Assembly: GCF_056746865.1 (NCBI RefSeq)
Contig: NZ_CM163382.1
Length of the DNA: 64,000 bases
Reading direction: 5' to 3' (one strand)
The position numbers were made by a program, and so were the translations under genes. This document shows, piece after piece, positions 6,222 through 60,163 of the stretch (within the stretch, counting starts at the first letter, position 1; each line of letters opens with the position of its first letter). Below the pieces are notes generated by a model, which worked only from the letters and a program-made list of their open reading frames with translations, had not been told where the DNA came from and did not search any database.

Positions 6222-7306
6222 CAGGTACGCTCCCTATAGTTTTGTTCAATCCAGGATTGGTAGGCACCACTCTTGACGTTGTTAATCCATTGTTGATTAT
6301 CCAGATACCACTGCACGGTCTTGCGAATACCAGACTCAAAAGTCTCCTCTGGCTGCCAATCCAACGCAGCGCTCATCTTGCAAGCATCAATCGCATATCG
6401 GCGATCGTGTCCGGGGCGATCCGCCACATAAGTAATTTGATCGCGATAAGAGCCAGCTTTCGGTACCATCTCGTCAAGCAGATCACAAATAGTATGTACT
6501 ACATCCAGGTTCTGCTTCTCGTTGTGACCGCCTATGTTATAAGTCTCCCCGACCAAGCCAGTGGTCACTACCTTGTAGAGTGCTCGTGCATGATCTTCCA
6601 CATACAACCAGTCACGAATTTGGTCACCTTTACCATAAACCGGCAGCGGCTTGCCATCCAGCGCATTGAGGATCACTAGCGGGATCAGCTTCTCGGGAAA
6701 GTGGTAAGGGCCATAGTTGTTGGAGCAGTTAGTGACAATGGTTGGCAGGCCGTACGTACGGTACCAAGCACGCACCAGATGATCGCTGGAAGCCTTGGAG
6801 GCAGAATAGGGACTGCTAGGAGCGTAGGAGGTAGTTTCGGTAAAGAGCGGCAATGCCTCACCGGAGGCTACTTCATCCGGATGGGGCAGATCGCCATATA
6901 CTTCATCGGTAGAAATATGGTGGAAGCGAAAGGCCGCCTTGCTCAACTCGCCCAGACTGCTCCAATAGGCGCGAGCCGCTTCCAGCAATGTATAGGTGCC
7001 TACGATATTGGTTTCGATAAAGTCGGCTGGCCCTGTGATAGAACGATCAACATGGCTTTCAGCAGCCAGATGCATCACGGCATCTGGCTGGTGCAGAGCA
7101 AACACCCGATCCAACTCAGCACGATTACAGATATCAACTTGTTCAAACGAATAACGCTCACTTGACGATACACTGGCCAAAGATTCCAAATTGCCAGCAT
7201 AGGTGAGTTTATCCAGATTGATAACGGAGTCTCCAGTATCACTAATGATATGACGCACCACGGCAGAGCCGATAAAACCAGCACCGCCAGTAACGAGAAT
7301 CTTCAT
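6221..7306 (-). CDS. rmlB: dTDP-glucose 4,6-dehydratase
   Basis: 361 aa, [21 protein letters not shown]ossmann motif plus extended-SDR body. First gene of the rml run. Confidence 0.92.
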
Positions 7307-11174: not shown

Positions 11175-12143
11175 TCAAACCATCCATTTCTTCATTTTTT
11201 TTTTGAACCAAGAACCAGTAGGAATAGGTTCAACTGCTGATAACTCAGTCAACTTCACACTTAATCGTTCCATTTCAGCTTTTACTTGTCCTGAGAATGC
11301 GGCAGCGAGAAGGCACTCTTCATCATTACGATCATGTGCCTTGAAATAATCTTTATGCTTCACTCGATTAGCAGTAGCAGCACTACCACGCAGATGCTTG
11401 CCCAACAAGAATTCCTCAAGTGATTTAACTGCATAGTGATTTACCCTGACACCGCTCCAAATCACTTCAGCACTAACTCCTTTACCATGCCTCGGGTGCA
11501 GAATCAAATCACGACCTAACACATCAATATATCGACCATAACGCAAATCAGCATAATGCGGATTATGAAAGCGGTTAACTCGTTCTGGTTTGACCACACT
11601 TTTGAAGTTATGATGAACGTTAAAGGGTTGCGGGGCACGATAGGTAAAACGTTCAATAACCAACCCCTCTTCAGCAAACAGTTCACCACTAGAACCAAAA
11701 TTTGCCCAATTCAATGCAATAGCGCTGACACTCTCATCCTGAAACTTTTCAGAAAAAAAATCTGACAATTTGGTATCCGATTCAAGTGGCAATAAAAATT
11801 CATCAGCATCTATAAATGCAAGCAGGTCTATGTCTCTGGGACAGCTACGTAAAATATGTTCATATGCAGGTAATTGTGGCTTTTGATTCACCAAAATCGG
11901 TTGATCGAACATCTTCACAATACCTAAGCGAGCGAGGGACAATAGCAACTCTCGACTACCATCACGACTACCATTATCTGCAATAATAAACCCATCAACA
12001 CCTAATACTCGATGGTAAGCAATCCATTCAAGTAAACTTGAATACTCATCCTTGATAATAGCGGCTATATAGAGTTTCAAATTATCATCCAGCAAAAATG
12101 TATCAATGCCGATACTATCGGCATTGATACTCAATTTTATCAT
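11175..12143 (-). CDS. glycosyltransferase (GT2/GT92-like fold)
   Basis: 322 aa with LLEWIAYHRVLGVDGFIIADNGSRDGS. Paralog of the N-terminal domain of the 409-aa protein at 15216..16445. Confidence 0.55.
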   Translation of the reverse strand: MIKLSINADSIGIDTFLLDDNLKLYIAAIIKDEYSSLLEWIAYHRVLGVDGFIIADNGSRDGSRELLLSLARLGIVKMFDQPILVNQKPQLPAYEHILRSCPRDIDLLAFIDADEFLLPLESDTKLSDFFSEKFQDESVSAIALNWANFGSSGELFAEEGLVIERFTYRAPQPFNVHHNFKSVVKPERVNRFHNPHYADLRYGRYIDVLGRDLILHPRHGKGVSAEVIWSGVRVNHYAVKSLEEFLLGKHLRGSAATANRVKHKDYFKAHDRNDEECLLAAAFSGQVKAEMERLSVKLTELSAVEPIPTGSWFKKKMKKWMV

Positions 12144-26635: not shown

Positions 26636-27564
26636 TTTAAAACGTTATCCAAAAGTTGATAGTATGTAAAACAATTACCTTCTATTATTGATACTCTGAC
26701 AGATATCAATAATAGCCCATAAATATAAGATATTTAAAATTATAACCACACAAATTAATCATAGATGTTGCTAGTATAAGATTGACTTTAGTCAACTGGT
26801 GTTTACATCATCTGTTTATAACTAATTACGAATATATCCTTTATCTTTTGGATATGTACTACATATGCAACACACATCCCTAAAAATATTATTTTTATGG
26901 CCCCGTATATTGCTATCTTTTTTTTATAAAATTTAATAATAACAACCATATGGAAGAGAAAATCCCTCTTATACATAAAGAGGGATCAATTAAATAAATT
27001 TGTTTTGTAATGACTCAGTAAGGCATAGACGTTTTCATAAATTCTTAAATTACTATCCCCAAAAATCTAAGTCCTGAAAAACTTTAACACTCTAATATTT
27101 TCATGAGCCGTTCAGCACACCCTCAACTTCGATAAAAAATGCTAACTAGTAAATAATTGTCGCAATAATAATAGTCGTACTTTATCAATAACAGATAAAC
27201 AAAAATAATAAAAAAGAGGGGAGATACACTTGCGATAGAATGGCGGCTTCTTGCCCCCCTTTGCCCGGTCCTGACTAGCATGGCTGGAGTCAGTGTCAGG
27301 CCACGACCATGCTCATCATGGAAGCAGCTTTTGTAGTACACTTCGCAGCTTATTTTCCTGGAACGAAATGTCTGGCATCGTGGTGCATAACATAACCCCC
27401 AATGCCCAGCAGATGCACAGAAGGTTCTAGAATCGCCCACTGATATCCCATACAAAATTTACCAAAACGTGTTCGTATTTCTCGTATAAATAATGTCTCT
27501 ATGGTGACGTTCTAGACTTCAAACCCACTTTTTGAATTTGATGATGTGCTCCTAATCTCTTCAG

Positions 27565-27604
27565 GAATGCTACCGCCCCTGGCTTTACAGCTACCAATAC
27601 ACTG
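27565..27604 (-). promoter_or_regulatory. JUMPstart element containing an ops (GGCGGTAG) site, RfaH-dependent antitermination signal for the kps transcript
   Basis: Minus-strand sequence cagtgtattggtagctgtaaagccaggggcggtagcattc closely matches the 39-bp JUMPstart consensus (CAGTG..TGGTAGCTGT.AAGCCAGGGGCGGTAGC). Correct orientation, ~1.3 kb upstream of kpsD. Confidence 0.75.
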
Positions 27605-53752: not shown

Positions 53753-54517
53753 ATGAAAGATGAACGTCGCCCTATTTGCGAAGTGGTTGCAGAGAGTATC
53801 GAACGGTTAATTATCGACGGCGTACTGAAGGTCGGTCAGCCGCTTCCCTCGGAACGTCGACTGTGTGAAAAGCTCGGCTTCTCACGCTCCGCACTGCGTG
53901 AAGGGCTGACCGTGCTGCGCGGGCGCGGGATTATTGAAACGGCGCAGGGTCGCGATTCTCGTGTCGCACGGCTTAATCGGGTGCAGGACACCAGCCCGCT
54001 AATTCATCTGTTCAGCACGCAGCCGCGAACGCTGTACGATCTGCTCGACGTTCGCGCATTACTGGAGGGCGAATCGGCAAGGCTGGCGGCAACGCTGGGA
54101 ACGCAGGCTGATTTTGTTGTGATAACTCGCTGTTATGAAAAAATGCTCGCCGCCAGTGAGAATAACAAAGAGATTTCGCTGATCGAACATGCGCAGTTGG
54201 ATCACGCTTTCCATCTCGCCATTTGTCAGGCTTCTCACAATCAGGTGCTGGTGTTTACGCTGCAATCATTGACCGATCTGATGTTTAATTCAGTGTTTGC
54301 CAGCGTAAATAATCTCTACCATCGACCACAGCAAAAAAAGCAGATCGATCGCCAGCATGCGCGGATCTACAACGCGGTGTTGCAGCGGCTGCCGCACGTC
54401 GCCCAGCGCGCAGCACGCGATCATGTGCGGACCGTGAAAAAGAATCTCCACGATATCGAGCTGGAAGGCCACCATTTGATTCGCTCGGCGGTGCCGCTGG
54501 AGATGAACCTGAGTTAG
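53753..54517 (+). CDS. glcC: GntR/FadR-family transcriptional activator of the glc operon
   Basis: 254 aa from the internal Met (MKDERRPICEVVAESIERLIIDG...), HTH GntR N-terminus and FCD domain. Divergent from glcD. Confidence 0.9.
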   Translation: MKDERRPICEVVAESIERLIIDGVLKVGQPLPSERRLCEKLGFSRSALREGLTVLRGRGIIETAQGRDSRVARLNRVQDTSPLIHLFSTQPRTLYDLLDVRALLEGESARLAATLGTQADFVVITRCYEKMLAASENNKEISLIEHAQLDHAFHLAICQASHNQVLVFTLQSLTDLMFNSVFASVNNLYHRPQQKKQIDRQHARIYNAVLQRLPHVAQRAARDHVRTVKKNLHDIELEGHHLIRSAVPLEMNLS

Positions 54518-54523
54518 CTGGTA

Positions 54524-55744
54524 TTAAATTTGCTTTTCATACAATCGGTAACGCTTGTACGGCTCCGCCCCAATGCGTTCCAGCATGTTATTCATGCCTG
54601 TATTGGTTTCGAGGATCCATGACATCTCCAGCGCATCGATCTTCCGGCGGGCAAACGGATCGCGTAAGGCTTCAATCAATAACAGCGCAATCACCGGGCC
54701 GATGCGGCTGAACTGATACTCGTCGCGCACGCCCATCAGCGGTACTCGCGCAGTTCGCACACCGCTGACTTTCAAACGCCACAGCAATTTTGCCCAGCCG
54801 AAGGGAAAGAGCGATCCGTTCAGATCGGCAATCGCCTCGTTGATGTTCGGCAAGCCGACAATAAACGCGCAGGGTGCAGAATCAATCTCAGCGATATAGA
54901 TCATATCGTCCGGCACCAGATATTTAAGTTGATCGCCCATGGTCGCGAATTCATGTTCGGTAAACGGCACAAATCCCCAGTTGTGCTGCCAGCCAGAGTT
55001 GAAAATCTCACGCAGGATCTGCATCTCTTCGGCAAACCGCTGACGATTGATGCAGCGAATGGTCACCTTTTTGCGCACCTGATCCATCAGTTTTTTTAGC
55101 GCCGGAGAGAAAGTGAGATCGGTTCGCTGCATCCACCACGCCAGTAAATCAATGCCTTTGTGATAACCCAGTTGTTCAATATGCGCGGCATACCACGGTT
55201 TGCCGTGTGGCATCATCGCACAGGGTGGTGTGTCAAAACCTTCAATCAGTAATCCGCTTTCCTGATTGATATTCAGGCTGAAAGGACCGCTGATCTTACT
55301 TGCACCTTGTGACTTCAACCACGCTTCCGCTGCGCCAAACAACGCGGCAAAAACCTGCGGATCATCAATGGCGTCAATCATGCCGAAATGACCGGTATCT
55401 TTGCCGTAACGCTCGCGGTGCAAGGTATCTATTTGCGCGGTAATACGCCCAACTATCTGCCCCGCTTTTTTTGCCACCCACGCCTGCCAGATGATATGGT
55501 CCGTCCCCGGATTTTTCGCAGACAAATGCTCGTTGCGTTCAATGAATAAAGGGGGTATCCAGTTTGGATCGTCGGGATAAAGTGATGACGGAAAAGCGAT
55601 AAATGCCTTAAGGTCATTTTTATTAATTACTTTTTCAATTTTAATCATCAGCAGATCGCATTCCATAGTTCTGTTCTGTGGGTAACAAATAATTAACGGT
55701 GACAAACAGGTTGCAACAGCAACGAACGGCACCTTAATAATCAA
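54524..55744 (-). CDS. yghO: YghO-like protein, possible acyl-CoA N-acyltransferase fold (uncertain)
   Basis: 406-aa track ORF; the true start is probably an internal Met (MECDLL... or MIKIEKV...). Position next to glcC matches E. coli yghO. The fold assignment is an inference. Confidence 0.5.
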   Translation of the reverse strand: MIIKVPFVAVATCLSPLIICYPQNRTMECDLLMIKIEKVINKNDLKAFIAFPSSLYPDDPNWIPPLFIERNEHLSAKNPGTDHIIWQAWVAKKAGQIVGRITAQIDTLHRERYGKDTGHFGMIDAIDDPQVFAALFGAAEAWLKSQGASKISGPFSLNINQESGLLIEGFDTPPCAMMPHGKPWYAAHIEQLGYHKGIDLLAWWMQRTDLTFSPALKKLMDQVRKKVTIRCINRQRFAEEMQILREIFNSGWQHNWGFVPFTEHEFATMGDQLKYLVPDDMIYIAEIDSAPCAFIVGLPNINEAIADLNGSLFPFGWAKLLWRLKVSGVRTARVPLMGVRDEYQFSRIGPVIALLLIEALRDPFARRKIDALEMSWILETNTGMNNMLERIGAEPYKRYRLYEKQI

Positions 55745-56033
55745 CCCAATGAATACAAACGACGAATAAATAGTATTTATTAATGATTACGATAAGGTCA
55801 GAGACTACACAGAAGCGCCACAATGCCTTTTGTCGATTTAAGGCGACCGGACAAGGCTTCTTCTTAATATATTCATAAATTAAATATCATTCACAATAAA
55901 AACAAAAAAACTCAAACTCATTATTTAAATCAATGTTCATTTTCACACTGATGAAAATACTATCTCATTTATCTTTTATGCCTATATAATCCACCGCATT
56001 ATTGTCATTTTATTTTGGATATCCAATTTTTTC
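55745..56033. promoter_or_regulatory. AT-rich divergent promoter region between yghO-like gene and the lipid operon
   Basis: 289-bp AT-rich intergenic region between divergently oriented genes. No individual promoter elements mapped. Confidence 0.3.
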
Positions 56034-57764
56034 GTGGTGTATATGTCTAATAAAATCTTTACGCATTCCCTACCTATGCGCTATGCCGATTTTCCAACGC
56101 TTGTTGATGCTTTGGACTACGCCGCTCTGAGTAGCGCCGGAATGAATTTTTATGACAGACGTTGCCAACTTGAAGATCAACTGGAATATCAGACGTTAAA
56201 AGCACGTGCCGAAGCTGGTGCGAAGCGGTTGTTATCGCTGAACCTGAAAAAAGGCGATCGCGTGGCACTGATTGCCGAAACAAGTAGCGAGTTCGTAGAG
56301 GCTTTTTTTGCCTGCCAGTATGCCGGCTTAGTCGCCGTCCCGTTGGCGATTCCAATGGGCGTTGGTCAGCGGGATTCCTGGAGCGCCAAATTGCAGGGTT
56401 TACTGGCAAGTTGCCAGCCCGCAGCCATTATCACTGGTGATGAGTGGTTGCCACTGGTCAATGCCGCGACGCATGACAACCCCGAATTACATGTTTTAAG
56501 CCACGCCTGGTTTAAGGCATTACCGGAAGCCGATGTTGCGCTCCAGCGTCCAGTTCCGAACGATATCGCCTACCTCCAGTACACCTCCGGCAGCACCCGT
56601 TTTCCCCGTGGCGTCATTATCACCCATCGCGAAGTGATGGCTAATCTACGTGCTATAAGCCACGACGGCATTAAATTACGCCCTGGCGACCGCTGCGTCT
56701 CCTGGCTGCCTTTCTACCATGATATGGGACTGGTCGGCTTTCTCCTGACCCCCGTCGCCACGCAGCTTTCAGTAGATTATTTGCGCACTCAGGATTTTGC
56801 CATGCGTCCTCTGCAATGGCTTAAATTGATCAGTAAAAATCGCGGCACCGTTTCCGTTGCGCCGCCGTTTGGCTATGAATTGTGCCAGCGCCGCGTGAAT
56901 GAAAAAGATCTCGCTGAACTGGATCTTTCCTGCTGGCGCGTCGCTGGTATTGGTGCAGAACCCATCTCCGCAGAACAACTCCATCAATTCGCTGAATGTT
57001 TCCGTCAGGTTAACTTTGACAATAAAACTTTCATGCCGTGCTACGGACTGGCAGAAAATGCGCTGGCTGTCAGCTTCTCTGATGAAGCCTCCGGGGTTGT
57101 GGTTAACGAAGTGGATCGCGACATCCTCGAATATCAGGGTAAAGCCGTCGCGCCGGGTGCAGAGACACGCGCCGTATCGACTTTCGTCAACTGCGGCAAA
57201 GCGTTGCCGGAACATGGTATTGAAATCCGCAATGAAGCAGGTATGCCGGTCGCGGAACGTGTGGTAGGCCATATTTGCATCTCCGGTCCCAGTCTGATGA
57301 GCGGTTACTTTGGCGACCAGGTTTCGCAAGACGAGATTGCCGCGACGGGCTGGTTAGACACCGGCGACCTCGGTTATCTGCTGGACGGTTATCTGTATGT
57401 CACCGGACGCATTAAAGATCTGATTATTATTCGTGGCCGTAATATCTGGCCGCAGGATATTGAATATATAGCGGAACAGGAACCGGAAATTCATTCTGGC
57501 GATGCGATTGCTTTTGTTACCGCCCAGGAAAAAATCATTTTGCAGATCCAGTGTCGGATCAGCGACGAAGAACGTCGCGGGCAGCTTATCCACGCGCTGG
57601 CGGCACGGATCCAAAGCGAATTTGGCGTGACCGCGGCTATCGATCTGTTGCCGCCCCACAGTATTCCCCGAACGTCCTCCGGCAAGCCTGCCCGTGCGGA
57701 AGCGAAAAAACGTTATCAGAAGGCTTATGCTGCCAGTCTTAATGTGCAGGAATCCCTGGCATGA
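56034..57764 (+). CDS. fatty acyl-AMP ligase / acyl-ACP synthetase (ANL superfamily)
   Basis: 576 aa, AMP-binding motif YLQYTSGSTRFPRGV, then YGLAEN and C-terminal GRIKDLIIIRGRNIWPQDIE typical of FAAL-type adenylating enzymes. Confidence 0.8.
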   Translation: MVYMSNKIFTHSLPMRYADFPTLVDALDYAALSSAGMNFYDRRCQLEDQLEYQTLKARAEAGAKRLLSLNLKKGDRVALIAETSSEFVEAFFACQYAGLVAVPLAIPMGVGQRDSWSAKLQGLLASCQPAAIITGDEWLPLVNAATHDNPELHVLSHAWFKALPEADVALQRPVPNDIAYLQYTSGSTRFPRGVIITHREVMANLRAISHDGIKLRPGDRCVSWLPFYHDMGLVGFLLTPVATQLSVDYLRTQDFAMRPLQWLKLISKNRGTVSVAPPFGYELCQRRVNEKDLAELDLSCWRVAGIGAEPISAEQLHQFAECFRQVNFDNKTFMPCYGLAENALAVSFSDEASGVVVNEVDRDILEYQGKAVAPGAETRAVSTFVNCGKALPEHGIEIRNEAGMPVAERVVGHICISGPSLMSGYFGDQVSQDEIAATGWLDTGDLGYLLDGYLYVTGRIKDLIIIRGRNIWPQDIEYIAEQEPEIHSGDAIAFVTAQEKIILQIQCRISDEERRGQLIHALAARIQSEFGVTAAIDLLPPHSIPRTSSGKPARAEAKKRYQKAYAASLNVQESLA

Positions 57765-58675
57765 ATCAAACTGTCGCGGTGACGGGCGCTACCGGGTTTA
57801 TCGGTAAATATATTATCGATAACCTGCTCGCCCGCGGCTTTCACGTTCGCGCATTGACGCGTACTGCCCGCGCTCACGTCAATGATAATCTCACCTGGGT
57901 GCGCGGTTCGCTGGAAGATACTCATTCACTTAGCGAGCTGGTTGCCGGAGCCAGCGTAGTGGTCCATTGCGCCGGGCAAGTGCGCGGGCACAAAGAAGAG
58001 ATTTTCACCCGCTGTAACGTTGACGGCAGCCTGCGCCTGATGCAAGCAGCAAAAGAGAGCGGCTTTTGCCAACGTTTTCTGTTTATCTCTTCGCTGGCGG
58101 CGCGCCATCCCGAGCTCTCCTGGTATGCAAAATCCAAATACGTCGCCGAGCAACGACTGGCAGCAATGGCGGACGAAATTACGCTGGGCGTTTTTCGCCC
58201 GACAGCCGTGTATGGTCCCGGCGATAAAGAGTTAAAACCGCTGTTTGACTGGATGCTGCGCGGCCTGCTGCCACGACTTGGTGCGCCAGATACACAGCTC
58301 TCTTTTCTGCACGTCACCGATTTCGCGCAAGCAGTGGGTCAGTGGTTAAGCGCCGAAACTATACAGACGCAAACCTATGAATTATGCGATGGCGTCGTCG
58401 GCGGCTATGACTGGCAACGCGTACAGCAACTTGCCGCCGACGCCCGTTGCGGTTCCGTGCGAATGGTTGGCATTCCTCTGCCGGTACTCACCGGCCTTGC
58501 GGATATCAGTACCGCGTTGAGTCGCCTGGCAGGTAAAGAACCTATGCTGACCCGCTCGAAAATTCGTGAATTAACCCACGCCGACTGGTCGGCAAGTAAT
58601 AACCGTATTTCTGAAGATATTAATTGGTTTCCCGGGATTAGCCTGGAACACGCATTACGCAACGGGCTATTTTGA
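57761..58675 (+). CDS. NAD(P)-dependent epimerase/dehydratase-family (extended SDR) reductase
   Basis: 304 aa, VAVTGATGFIGKYI Rossmann motif and YAKSK catalytic YxxxK. Start overlaps the upstream stop (ATGA). Confidence 0.75.
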   Translation: MNQTVAVTGATGFIGKYIIDNLLARGFHVRALTRTARAHVNDNLTWVRGSLEDTHSLSELVAGASVVVHCAGQVRGHKEEIFTRCNVDGSLRLMQAAKESGFCQRFLFISSLAARHPELSWYAKSKYVAEQRLAAMADEITLGVFRPTAVYGPGDKELKPLFDWMLRGLLPRLGAPDTQLSFLHVTDFAQAVGQWLSAETIQTQTYELCDGVVGGYDWQRVQQLAADARCGSVRMVGIPLPVLTGLADISTALSRLAGKEPMLTRSKIRELTHADWSASNNRISEDINWFPGISLEHALRNGLF

Positions 58676-58706
58676 TTGTCTTGTTTAAAGGTGTGTTAAC
58701 GTTTCT

Positions 58707-58955
58707 ATGGTAAATCGTGAAATAGTAATGGATTACATCCTTTCCTGTTTACAGGATTTGGTCGAAAACGGTGTGGAAATTAAGCCCGACAGCGATCTCG
58801 TCAACGATCTTGGCCTGGAGTCGATCAAAGTGATGGATCTCTTAATGATGCTGGAAGACAGATTCGATATTTCCATTCCTATTAATATTCTGCTGGATGT
58901 CAAAACCCCTGCGCAATTAATGGAAACTCTACTTCCATGGCTGGAGAATAAATAA
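58707..58955 (+). CDS. acyl carrier protein
   Basis: 82 aa (true start perhaps an internal Met), DLGLESIKVMDL helix-II motif with a candidate phosphopantetheine serine. Confidence 0.65.
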   Translation: MVNREIVMDYILSCLQDLVENGVEIKPDSDLVNDLGLESIKVMDLLMMLEDRFDISIPINILLDVKTPAQLMETLLPWLENK

Positions 58956-60127
58956 TGGGGCTATACGATAAATATGCGCGCCTTGCTGGCGAGCGACTGC
59001 AATTTAGTGACAACGGGTTAACACCGTTTGGCACCTGTATTGATGAAGTGTATTCCGCCACCGAAGGCCGGATCGGCAATAAAAAAGTGATTCTGGCCGG
59101 GACCAATAATTATCTCGGTTTAACCTTTAATCATGATGCCATCAGCGAAGGTCAGGCCGCGTTAGCGGCCCAAGGTACCGGCACCACCGGTTCTCGTATG
59201 GCAAACGGCAGTTATGCGCCGCACCTGGCGTTAGAGAAAGAGATTGCCGAGTTTTTCAATCGCCCTACCGCTATCGTTTTTTCAACCGGTTATACCGCTA
59301 ATTTAGGCGTCATCAGCGCACTTGCCGACCATAACGCCGTGGTGTTACTGGATGCCGACAGCCACGCCAGTATTTATGACGCCTGTTCTCTCGGTGGCGC
59401 GGAAATTATTCGTTTCCGCCATAACGATGCTAAAGATCTGGAACGGCGCATGGTTCGCCTCGGTGAACGGGCGAAAGAGGCGATTATCATCGTTGAGGGT
59501 ATCTACAGCATGCTCGGTGACGTTGCGCCGTTAGCGGAAATTGTTGATATCAAACGTCGTCTCGGTGGTTATTTGATTGTCGATGAAGCGCATTCGTTTG
59601 GCGTGTTAGGCGCAACGGGGCGCGGACTGGCTGAAGCTGTCGGCGTTGAAGATGATGTGGATATTATCGTTGGCACCTTCAGTAAAAGTCTGGCCTCGAT
59701 TGGCGGTTTTGCTGTCGGTTCGGAAGCGATGGAAGTGCTGCGCTACGGCAGCCGCCCGTATATTTTTACCGCCTCTCCTTCTCCGTCCTGCATTGCGACC
59801 GTGCGCTCGTCGTTAAGAACTATTGCCACACAACCAGAGCTGCGGCAAAAGCTGATGGATAATGCCAACCATCTGTATGACGGTCTGCAAAAACTGGGTT
59901 ATGAGTTAAGTTCACATATTAGCCCGGTAGTGCCGGTAATAATCGGTTCGAAAGAGGACGGTTTACGCATCTGGCGCGAGCTTATTTCGCTGGGCGTTTA
60001 TGTGAATCTTATCCTGCCACCTGCCGCGCCTGCAGGCATCACGCTGCTGCGCTGTAGCGTAAACGCTGCTCACAGTCGTGAGCAAATCGATGCCATCATT
60101 CAGGCATTTGCTACTCTGAAGCAGTAA
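58955..60127 (+). CDS. alpha-oxoamine synthase family PLP enzyme (BioF/Kbl/serine palmitoyltransferase-like)
   Basis: 390 aa, GTTGSRMANG, DEAHSFG and the PLP-lysine motif GTFSKSL. Start overlaps the ACP stop (TAATG). Confidence 0.85.
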   Translation: MGLYDKYARLAGERLQFSDNGLTPFGTCIDEVYSATEGRIGNKKVILAGTNNYLGLTFNHDAISEGQAALAAQGTGTTGSRMANGSYAPHLALEKEIAEFFNRPTAIVFSTGYTANLGVISALADHNAVVLLDADSHASIYDACSLGGAEIIRFRHNDAKDLERRMVRLGERAKEAIIIVEGIYSMLGDVAPLAEIVDIKRRLGGYLIVDEAHSFGVLGATGRGLAEAVGVEDDVDIIVGTFSKSLASIGGFAVGSEAMEVLRYGSRPYIFTASPSPSCIATVRSSLRTIATQPELRQKLMDNANHLYDGLQKLGYELSSHISPVVPVIIGSKEDGLRIWRELISLGVYVNLILPPAAPAGITLLRCSVNAAHSREQIDAIIQAFATLKQ

Positions 60128-60133
60128 TGTGAG

Positions 60134-60163
60134 CCCGCCGTGGTGTTGCGCCACGGCGGGTTT
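60134..60163. terminator. hairpin terminator between convergent operons
   Basis: Perfect inverted repeat cccgccgtgg / ccacggcggg with a 7-nt loop, 6 nt after the AOS stop and abutting the stop of the convergent permease gene, followed by TTT. Confidence 0.55.

Follow-up and report, generated by a model that had tools for sequence, protein, structure and literature searches.

A conserved hairpin between the convergent spt and lptG2 genes of Escherichia coli, a probable terminator of the spt operon

The window, a stretch of 64,000 nucleotides from contig NZ_CM163382.1 (assembly GCF_056746865.1), carries two strings of genes that converge on a short gap. On the plus strand, aasR, epi and acpR (56034-58955; open reading frames, Pfam, RefSeq and literature) encode an acyl-AMP/ACP ligase, an NAD-dependent epimerase-family reductase and an 82-aa ACP, respectively. 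These genes overlap or lie at most 31 nt apart. The RefSeq labels are fatty acyl-AMP ligase for aasR and NAD-dependent epimerase-family protein for epi. The last gene of the string aasR-epi-acpR-spt is spt (58955-60127, plus strand), encoding a serine palmitoyltransferase (Pfam Aminotran_1_2, RefSeq) with the orthologue ECD_02854 in E. coli B. The minus strand carries a gene for a hypothetical protein of 274 aa, a YtfJ-family gene and lptF2 (61238-63735; open reading frames, Pfam, RefSeq). Here, the last gene is lptG2 (60162-61241, minus strand; RefSeq CDS of 1080 nt), which encodes an accessory LptG-family permease (Pfam LptF_LptG, 1.4e-69). Both spt and lptG2 close a string of overlapping or tightly spaced genes on the same strand. 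In complete related genomes, yghQ, yghR and yghS come next after the minus-strand genes. The 1.1 kb around the gap are 100% identical to E. coli ATCC 8739, strain C and others.

The sphingolipid cluster of E. coli B comprises aasR (ECD_02851), epi (ECD_02852), acpR (ECD_02853), spt (ECD_02854) and the N-acyltransferase gene yghO; Spt, AcpR and AasR have been assayed biochemically (PMC9386255). In Caulobacter, second copies of LptF and LptG encoded beside sphingolipid genes were named LptF2 and LptG2, and a role in sphingolipid transport was proposed (PMC11324152). The genes labeled "lptG" and "lptF" by RefSeq (60162-62308, minus strand) are accessory copies inside the sphingolipid cluster, parallel to the Caulobacter pair (PMC11324152). 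The permease is LptG2, a second copy distinct from the essential LptG, and the automatic name "LPS export permease" for these genes is probably misleading. The original prediction placed an "AOS" gene and a permease gene as convergent last genes. This arrangement holds, and the labels were refined by Pfam, RefSeq and literature to serine palmitoyltransferase Spt and an accessory LptG paralogue.

About 4,110 of the 5,426 complete E. coli genomes (~76%) carry the locus. E. coli K-12 MG1655 lacks aasR, epi, acpR, spt, lptG2, lptF2, the ytfJ-like gene and the gene for the 274-aa protein. The deletion is due to an IS5 element (insH9), which separates yghO from a shortened yghQ in this strain (3129043-3132408). 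The insertion of IS5 at yghO has been reported for K-12 (PMC11677980). A decayed cluster was observed in the chicken isolate E. coli BS-04 (3064909-3068068), with only frameshifted fragments left of the ligase, the reductase and the spt gene. In this strain lptG2 and lptF2 are absent and yghQ is truncated.

The stop codons of the two convergent genes are separated by 34 nt. The TAA of spt occupies 60125-60127, and the stop codon of lptG2 lies at 60162-60164 on the minus strand (TTA on the plus strand). The gap (60128-60161) reads TGTGAG-CCCGCCGTGG-TGTTGCG-CCACGGCGGG-T on the plus strand; direct reading of 60128-60170 gives TGTGAG CCCGCCGTGG TGTTGCG CCACGGCGGG TTTAATGTTG. The repeat search identified an inverted repeat with a left arm CCCGCCGTGG at 60134-60143 and a right arm CCACGGCGGG at 60151-60160. 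Both arms are 10 nt long and 100% complementary, and they enclose a spacer of 7 nt (TGTTGCG, 60144-60150). The perfect 10-bp GC-rich inverted repeat in the 34-bp gap, as first predicted, was thus confirmed by sequence and repeat search; the interval then given, 60134-60163, covers the two arms plus TTT. The distance from stem to stop codon is 1-6 nt for both genes, the end of lptG2 being 1 nt away from the hairpin.

The repeat pattern, with up to three mismatches allowed, has one occurrence in the window, compared to 0.00 expected from 100 shuffles. Perfect 10-bp inverted repeats with loops of 3-10 nt occur at five distinct places in the 64 kb, and dinucleotide shuffles yield a mean of 0.83 register-hits per shuffle. 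The repeat between spt and lptG2 has the highest GC content of the five (9/10). The other perfect inverted repeats of at least 10 bp with short loops are located at 7063-7090, 12101-12129, 26684-26713 and 45041-45069. The last of these includes GCCGGATG and may be REP-like. In a search of the whole window against Rfam at gathering score, the hairpin had no match, and a search of 60000-60300 at E <= 10 found only an unrelated chance match outside the hairpin. Elsewhere in the window, Rfam identified a JUMPstart element (27566-27604, minus strand, 54.4 bits) and the sRNA C0719 (46839-47060, plus strand, 299 bits).

RNA of both strands is predicted to fold at the junction. For segments of 43 nt, the folding z-scores are -5.48 (plus strand) and -5.05 (minus strand), and for segments of 61 nt -7.24 and -3.6, respectively. 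Terminator scan and folding place an extended stem-loop of 16 bp, G-U pairs included, at 60130-60164 in the plus-strand RNA only (dG -29.9 kcal/mol). Its core extends inwards by the pairs U60144-G60150 and G60145-C60149, leaving a 3-nt loop (UUG), and outwards by G-U and A-U pairs. The minus-strand RNA forms the 10-bp core alone with a 7-nt loop (-21.9 kcal/mol).

The sequences behind the stem also differ between the strands. The plus strand continues with the U-rich tail UUUAAUGUU (60161-60169, 6/9 U; direct sequence reading and terminator scan). It is complementary to the final two codons plus stop codon of lptG2 (CAA CAU UAA), so that terminator tail and lptG2 end are identical nucleotides. 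On the minus strand, the nine nucleotides after the hairpin, CUCACAUUA (60125-60133, 3/9 U), overlap the spt stop codon and contain no U-run. A scan of 54000-64000 for the consensus of hairpin plus U-tail ranked the plus-strand site strongest, with 16 pairs including 10 G-C pairs. All 14 other candidates had eight pairs or fewer. The plus-strand site satisfies the tail rule of the scan and is the only strong terminator-like site in this region; a minus-strand site was not called at the hairpin position. Of the features of a Rho-independent terminator, a stable GC-rich stem-loop is present on both strands, and the position after the last gene of a transcription unit applies to spt as well as to lptG2. 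The U-rich tract 3′ of the stem is found on the plus strand (spt) and is lacking on the minus strand (lptG2).

Conservation was studied with a 43-nt hairpin query in the 5,426 complete E. coli genomes. The hairpin was found in 4,112 of them, with a median of one place per genome, and always at the spt/lptG2 junction. It was identical in 1,388 genomes, differed at one position in 2,560 and at more positions in 166. Sampled variants of the loop, a T insertion and a T>C change, are tolerated. A sampled C>T variant of the left arm results in a U-G pair on the plus strand and an A-C mismatch on the minus strand. Compensatory double changes in the core have been identified in Escherichia strain SCPM-O-B-8794 (C-G to U-A) and in E. 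whittamii (G-C to A-U). Base pairs are thus maintained by compensatory changes in relatives, as expected of a structured RNA, in a small sample of eight distinct sequences. One further change in Escherichia creates a true mismatch, and a change in lineage E1V33 preserves pairing on the minus strand only. Of the one-sided changes in the 10-bp core, three are compatible with G-U pairing on the plus strand and one on the minus strand. Over the eight distinct Escherichia sequences, 95.3% of the pairs in the 16-pair helix are maintained on the plus strand versus 78.1% on the minus strand; controls in slid registers are 25-51% paired, those set against the 95.3% being 37-51% paired. The observed pairing values were matched by 10-14 of 500 shuffles, in what is a small sample of eight related sequences. 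The hairpin structure is under selection, and the evidence from these eight related sequences leans mildly to the plus-strand RNA.

Sequence divergence within E. coli has a border at the same place. In strains of the MLI108K1 and 1585m1 types, identity to the window is only 85-92% over the 3′ third of lptG2 (60162 to about 60750), compared with 96-100% for spt, the hairpin and the region past about 60750. An identity band of 90-95% contains about 400 E. coli genomes. The divergent recombination patch in these genomes starts exactly at the lptG2 stop codon beside the hairpin.

Other genera were compared in a scan for Spt with one genome per species, which retrieved about 34 close relatives with 53-99% identity. 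Escherichia, Pseudocitrobacter, Citrobacter amalonaticus, C. youngae and Hafnia retain spt and lptG2 as convergent neighbors, 34-90 nt apart. In Pluralibacter, an additional gene separates the two. A strong hairpin, unrelated in sequence, is present at every kept junction. The gene lptG2 is located elsewhere or on the same strand in Serratia, Sodalis, Mangrovibacter, Pantoea and Rosenbergiella, and a hairpin is still found within about 0-35 nt after spt in these genera. Where lptG2 is apart from spt, it usually has its own hairpin 30-40 nt past its stop codon. An energy-based search for the best single hairpin discriminated poorly, as -17 kcal/mol was also attained by 15 of the 45 random windows. 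Moreover, it counted A/U flanks as part of the stem, and this distorted the tail scores. The length of the longest perfect stem was used instead, and for the other genera this statistic alone is discriminating. Perfect stems of 9-15 bp follow spt in 18 of 32 loci; among 3,000 random control windows of 113 nt, 0.6% contained a stem of at least 10 bp.

The flanking U-runs vary among these genera. Pantoea, Pluralibacter and Mangrovibacter have canonical U-runs on either side of the hairpin, and Escherichia has one on a single side. Pseudocitrobacter, Serratia and Sodalis have an equivalent hairpin without a U-run on either strand. What these loci have in common is thus the stem rather than the complete signature of an intrinsic terminator, and the U-less hairpins suggest that the conserved function may depend on the hairpin rather than on classical intrinsic termination. 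Strong hairpins of unrelated sequence at the same place after spt indicate selection on structure, not on sequence. A conserved position with free sequence at operon ends fits a role in RNA or transcription and argues against a protein-recognition site. Serratia sp. M24T3 carries spt at two loci (81% and 79% identity to the query), and related 14-bp hairpins of the form CATGCTGCT.ATTG...CAAT.AGCAGCATG are located behind both copies. A 273-bp contig with 1.5x coverage in an assembly of Alkalicoccobacillus porphyridii (NZ_VLXZ01000209.1) shares 100% protein identity with the E. coli spt/lptG2 junction. This contig is almost certainly E. coli contamination.

The hairpin is best explained as an ordinary operon-end element, the Rho-independent terminator of aasR-epi-acpR-spt on the plus strand, with at most a non-canonical function on the lptG2 side. 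From the sequence evidence, a probability of roughly 0.65 is assigned to this reading. RNA polymerase would pass the spt stop codon, and the nascent RNA would fold into a GC-rich stem of 12-16 bp. The following UUUAAUGUU would give a weak RNA-DNA hybrid and so permit release about 7-9 nt past the stem. Subsequently, the hairpin could shield the 3′ end of the spt transcript from exonucleases. The lptG2 transcript would carry the 10-bp core too, purely through geometry. On the minus strand, the hairpin may at most act as a pause site for the polymerase, as a fixed meeting place of converging polymerases or as the point to which a transcript terminated downstream is trimmed back. With no U-run behind it, the hairpin cannot act as a canonical terminator for lptG2. 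Termination as such, its efficiency and any minus-strand effect are predictions from the structure, position, conservation and strand asymmetry observed. The original prediction of a terminator shared by both operons is supported for the plus strand, which has the top match of the scan and a conserved, compensated stem. It finds no such support on the lptG2 strand, where a U-run is lacking and the scan reported no site. With a terminator signature on one side only, "shared" describes a geometry rather than a demonstrated function, and for the minus strand a terminator appears doubtful. The insulation of the two transcription units, likewise part of the original prediction, is also doubtful for this strand on the sequence evidence.

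Intrinsic terminators of enterobacteria likewise have a GC-rich stem of 10-16 bp and a short loop a few nucleotides past the stop codon of the last gene, and the plus side resembles them in its U-rich tail. In contrast to them, the U-tract UUUAAUGUU is interrupted and codes for the opposing gene, and the minus strand has no U-tract. The interruption makes the efficiency of termination uncertain. The tail is dictated by the stop and last codons of lptG2 and may therefore not be selected for termination. With both stop codons at a distance of 1-6 nt from the stem, terminating ribosomes could interfere with folding. The change in lineage E1V33, which retains pairing on the minus strand only, would count against the plus-strand terminator.

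A terminator that serves both operons is a less probable reading. One hairpin would efficiently end the transcripts of spt and lptG2 alike; on the minus strand, this would work through pausing combined with head-on and co-directional polymerase collisions. In convergent gene pairs of E. coli, the stem-loop sets the meeting point of the polymerases, and release requires further collisions; published bidirectional terminators of this type reportedly do not look like intrinsic terminators, and the stem-loop alone is reported to fix the collision site (bioRxiv 10.1101/2022.10.23.513370). The bidirectional terminators detected by SEnd-seq likewise consist of one hairpin between convergent stop codons that is foldable on both strands (Ju et al., 2019, cited in bioRxiv 10.1101/2022.10.23.513370). 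This arrangement is found here, with a hairpin exactly between the convergent stops and stable on both strands (-29.9 and -21.9 kcal/mol). Compensatory changes preserve pairing on both strands, and Pseudocitrobacter carries a U-less hairpin at the same junction. On the other side, the minus strand has no U-run and was passed over by the terminator scan, and the conservation of pairing favors the plus strand. The collision mechanism also requires active transcription of both operons and reportedly works better for highly expressed pairs (bioRxiv 10.1101/2022.10.23.513370). As with the SEnd-seq terminators, the mRNA 3′ ends predicted for spt and lptG2 would overlap, here by about 40 nt. The flanks of the spt/lptG2 hairpin are asymmetric, unlike those of the neighboring yghT/pitB terminator, which is A-rich and U-rich on both sides. 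A further and rather improbable extension is that a collision terminator independent of a U-tract couples the operon for sphingolipid synthesis (spt) to the putative export operon (lptG2) by mutual stopping of polymerases at a fixed point. The complementary mRNA 3′ ends of roughly 40 nt could then pair, and each operon could tune the stability or the read-through of the other.

Protection of 3′ ends as the main function of the hairpin is considered unlikely. One or both operons would be terminated downstream, e.g. by Rho acting on untranslated antisense RNA, and exonucleases would trim the transcripts back to the stem, which would set mRNA stability. RNA past either stop codon is untranslated antisense and a normal substrate of Rho. 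Stem-loops that stabilize the 3′ ends of Rho-terminated or processed mRNAs are a known class. They are likewise stable hairpins located right after the coding region, and the version on the minus strand and those at the equivalent site in several genera are devoid of a U-tract, as this function would allow. A downstream Rho site, in contrast to that class, was sought here only by base composition, and none is obvious on the minus strand. The first 160 nt of minus-strand RNA past the hairpin are not C-rich and G-poor (C/G 1.06, 0.81, 0.84), so that no obvious rut-like stretch is present. The C/G values of the downstream RNA are 1.06, 0.81, 0.84 and 1.57 on the minus strand and 1.53, 1.41 and 0.95 on the plus strand, where the RNA is somewhat C-rich at first (about 1.5 and 1.4); composition alone cannot decide. 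The plus strand has a usable U-rich tail, and simple intrinsic termination would suffice there.

A function at the DNA level is very improbable. The hairpin would then be a palindromic site for a dimeric protein or a junction, left by recombination or a mobile element, that joined two separately acquired gene modules. The perfect palindrome with its spacer would suit such a site, as would the different arrangement of the spt and lptG2 modules in Serratia, Sodalis and Rosenbergiella and the divergent patch that begins at the lptG2 stop codon in about 400 genomes. Against it, the sequence varies between genera while the structure is kept. Tolerated changes in the loop and compensated changes in the stem are characteristic of a folded strand rather than of a recognition sequence. 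Moreover, the junction is bounded by two stop codons and distant from any promoter. Neither further genomic copies nor repeats or mobile genes in the flanks were found. Two further readings, a palindrome that arose by chance and an element of the dispersed REP/BIME repeats, are refuted. REP elements occur at the nearby convergent yghU/hybG junction, and a GC-rich palindrome in a short convergent gap is a feature that REP/BIME elements also have. These readings are contradicted by an expectation of 0.00, by the single copy per genome, always at spt/lptG2 and with no second copy in the window, and by a compensated conservation across Escherichia species.

Convergent junctions of the same genome provide a local comparison. 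The yghT/pitB junction has a textbook bidirectional terminator flanked by A and U residues, and the yghU/hybG junction has REP elements. Terminators or REP elements at convergent junctions are hence routine here. The glcC/yghO junction (54517-54524) has 6 nt between the stop codons and no hairpin, unlike spt/lptG2. The accessory sphingolipid cluster itself has already been published, and the hairpin is an undescribed instance of a well-known kind. In the literature on the locus (ECD_02851-02856) and on Term-seq in BL21, O157, Nissle and UPEC, no transcript-end data for the junction were found. K-12 lacks the locus, and the SEnd-seq study of K-12 thus cannot cover the junction (bioRxiv 10.1101/2022.10.23.513370). 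Literature on yghO and yghQ contained nothing beyond the IS5 context of K-12. To our knowledge, the other published 3′-end maps of E. coli are also from K-12.

As the probable terminator of aasR-epi-acpR-spt, the hairpin delimits the spt operon at its 3′ end, which matters little beyond annotation. Knowing this boundary is useful when the cluster is cloned or re-engineered in BL21-type strains, as one set of nucleotides serves both as terminator tail and as stop codon of lptG2. The junction also offers a compact natural test case for the question of whether a hairpin with a one-sided U-tail can stop convergent transcription from both sides.
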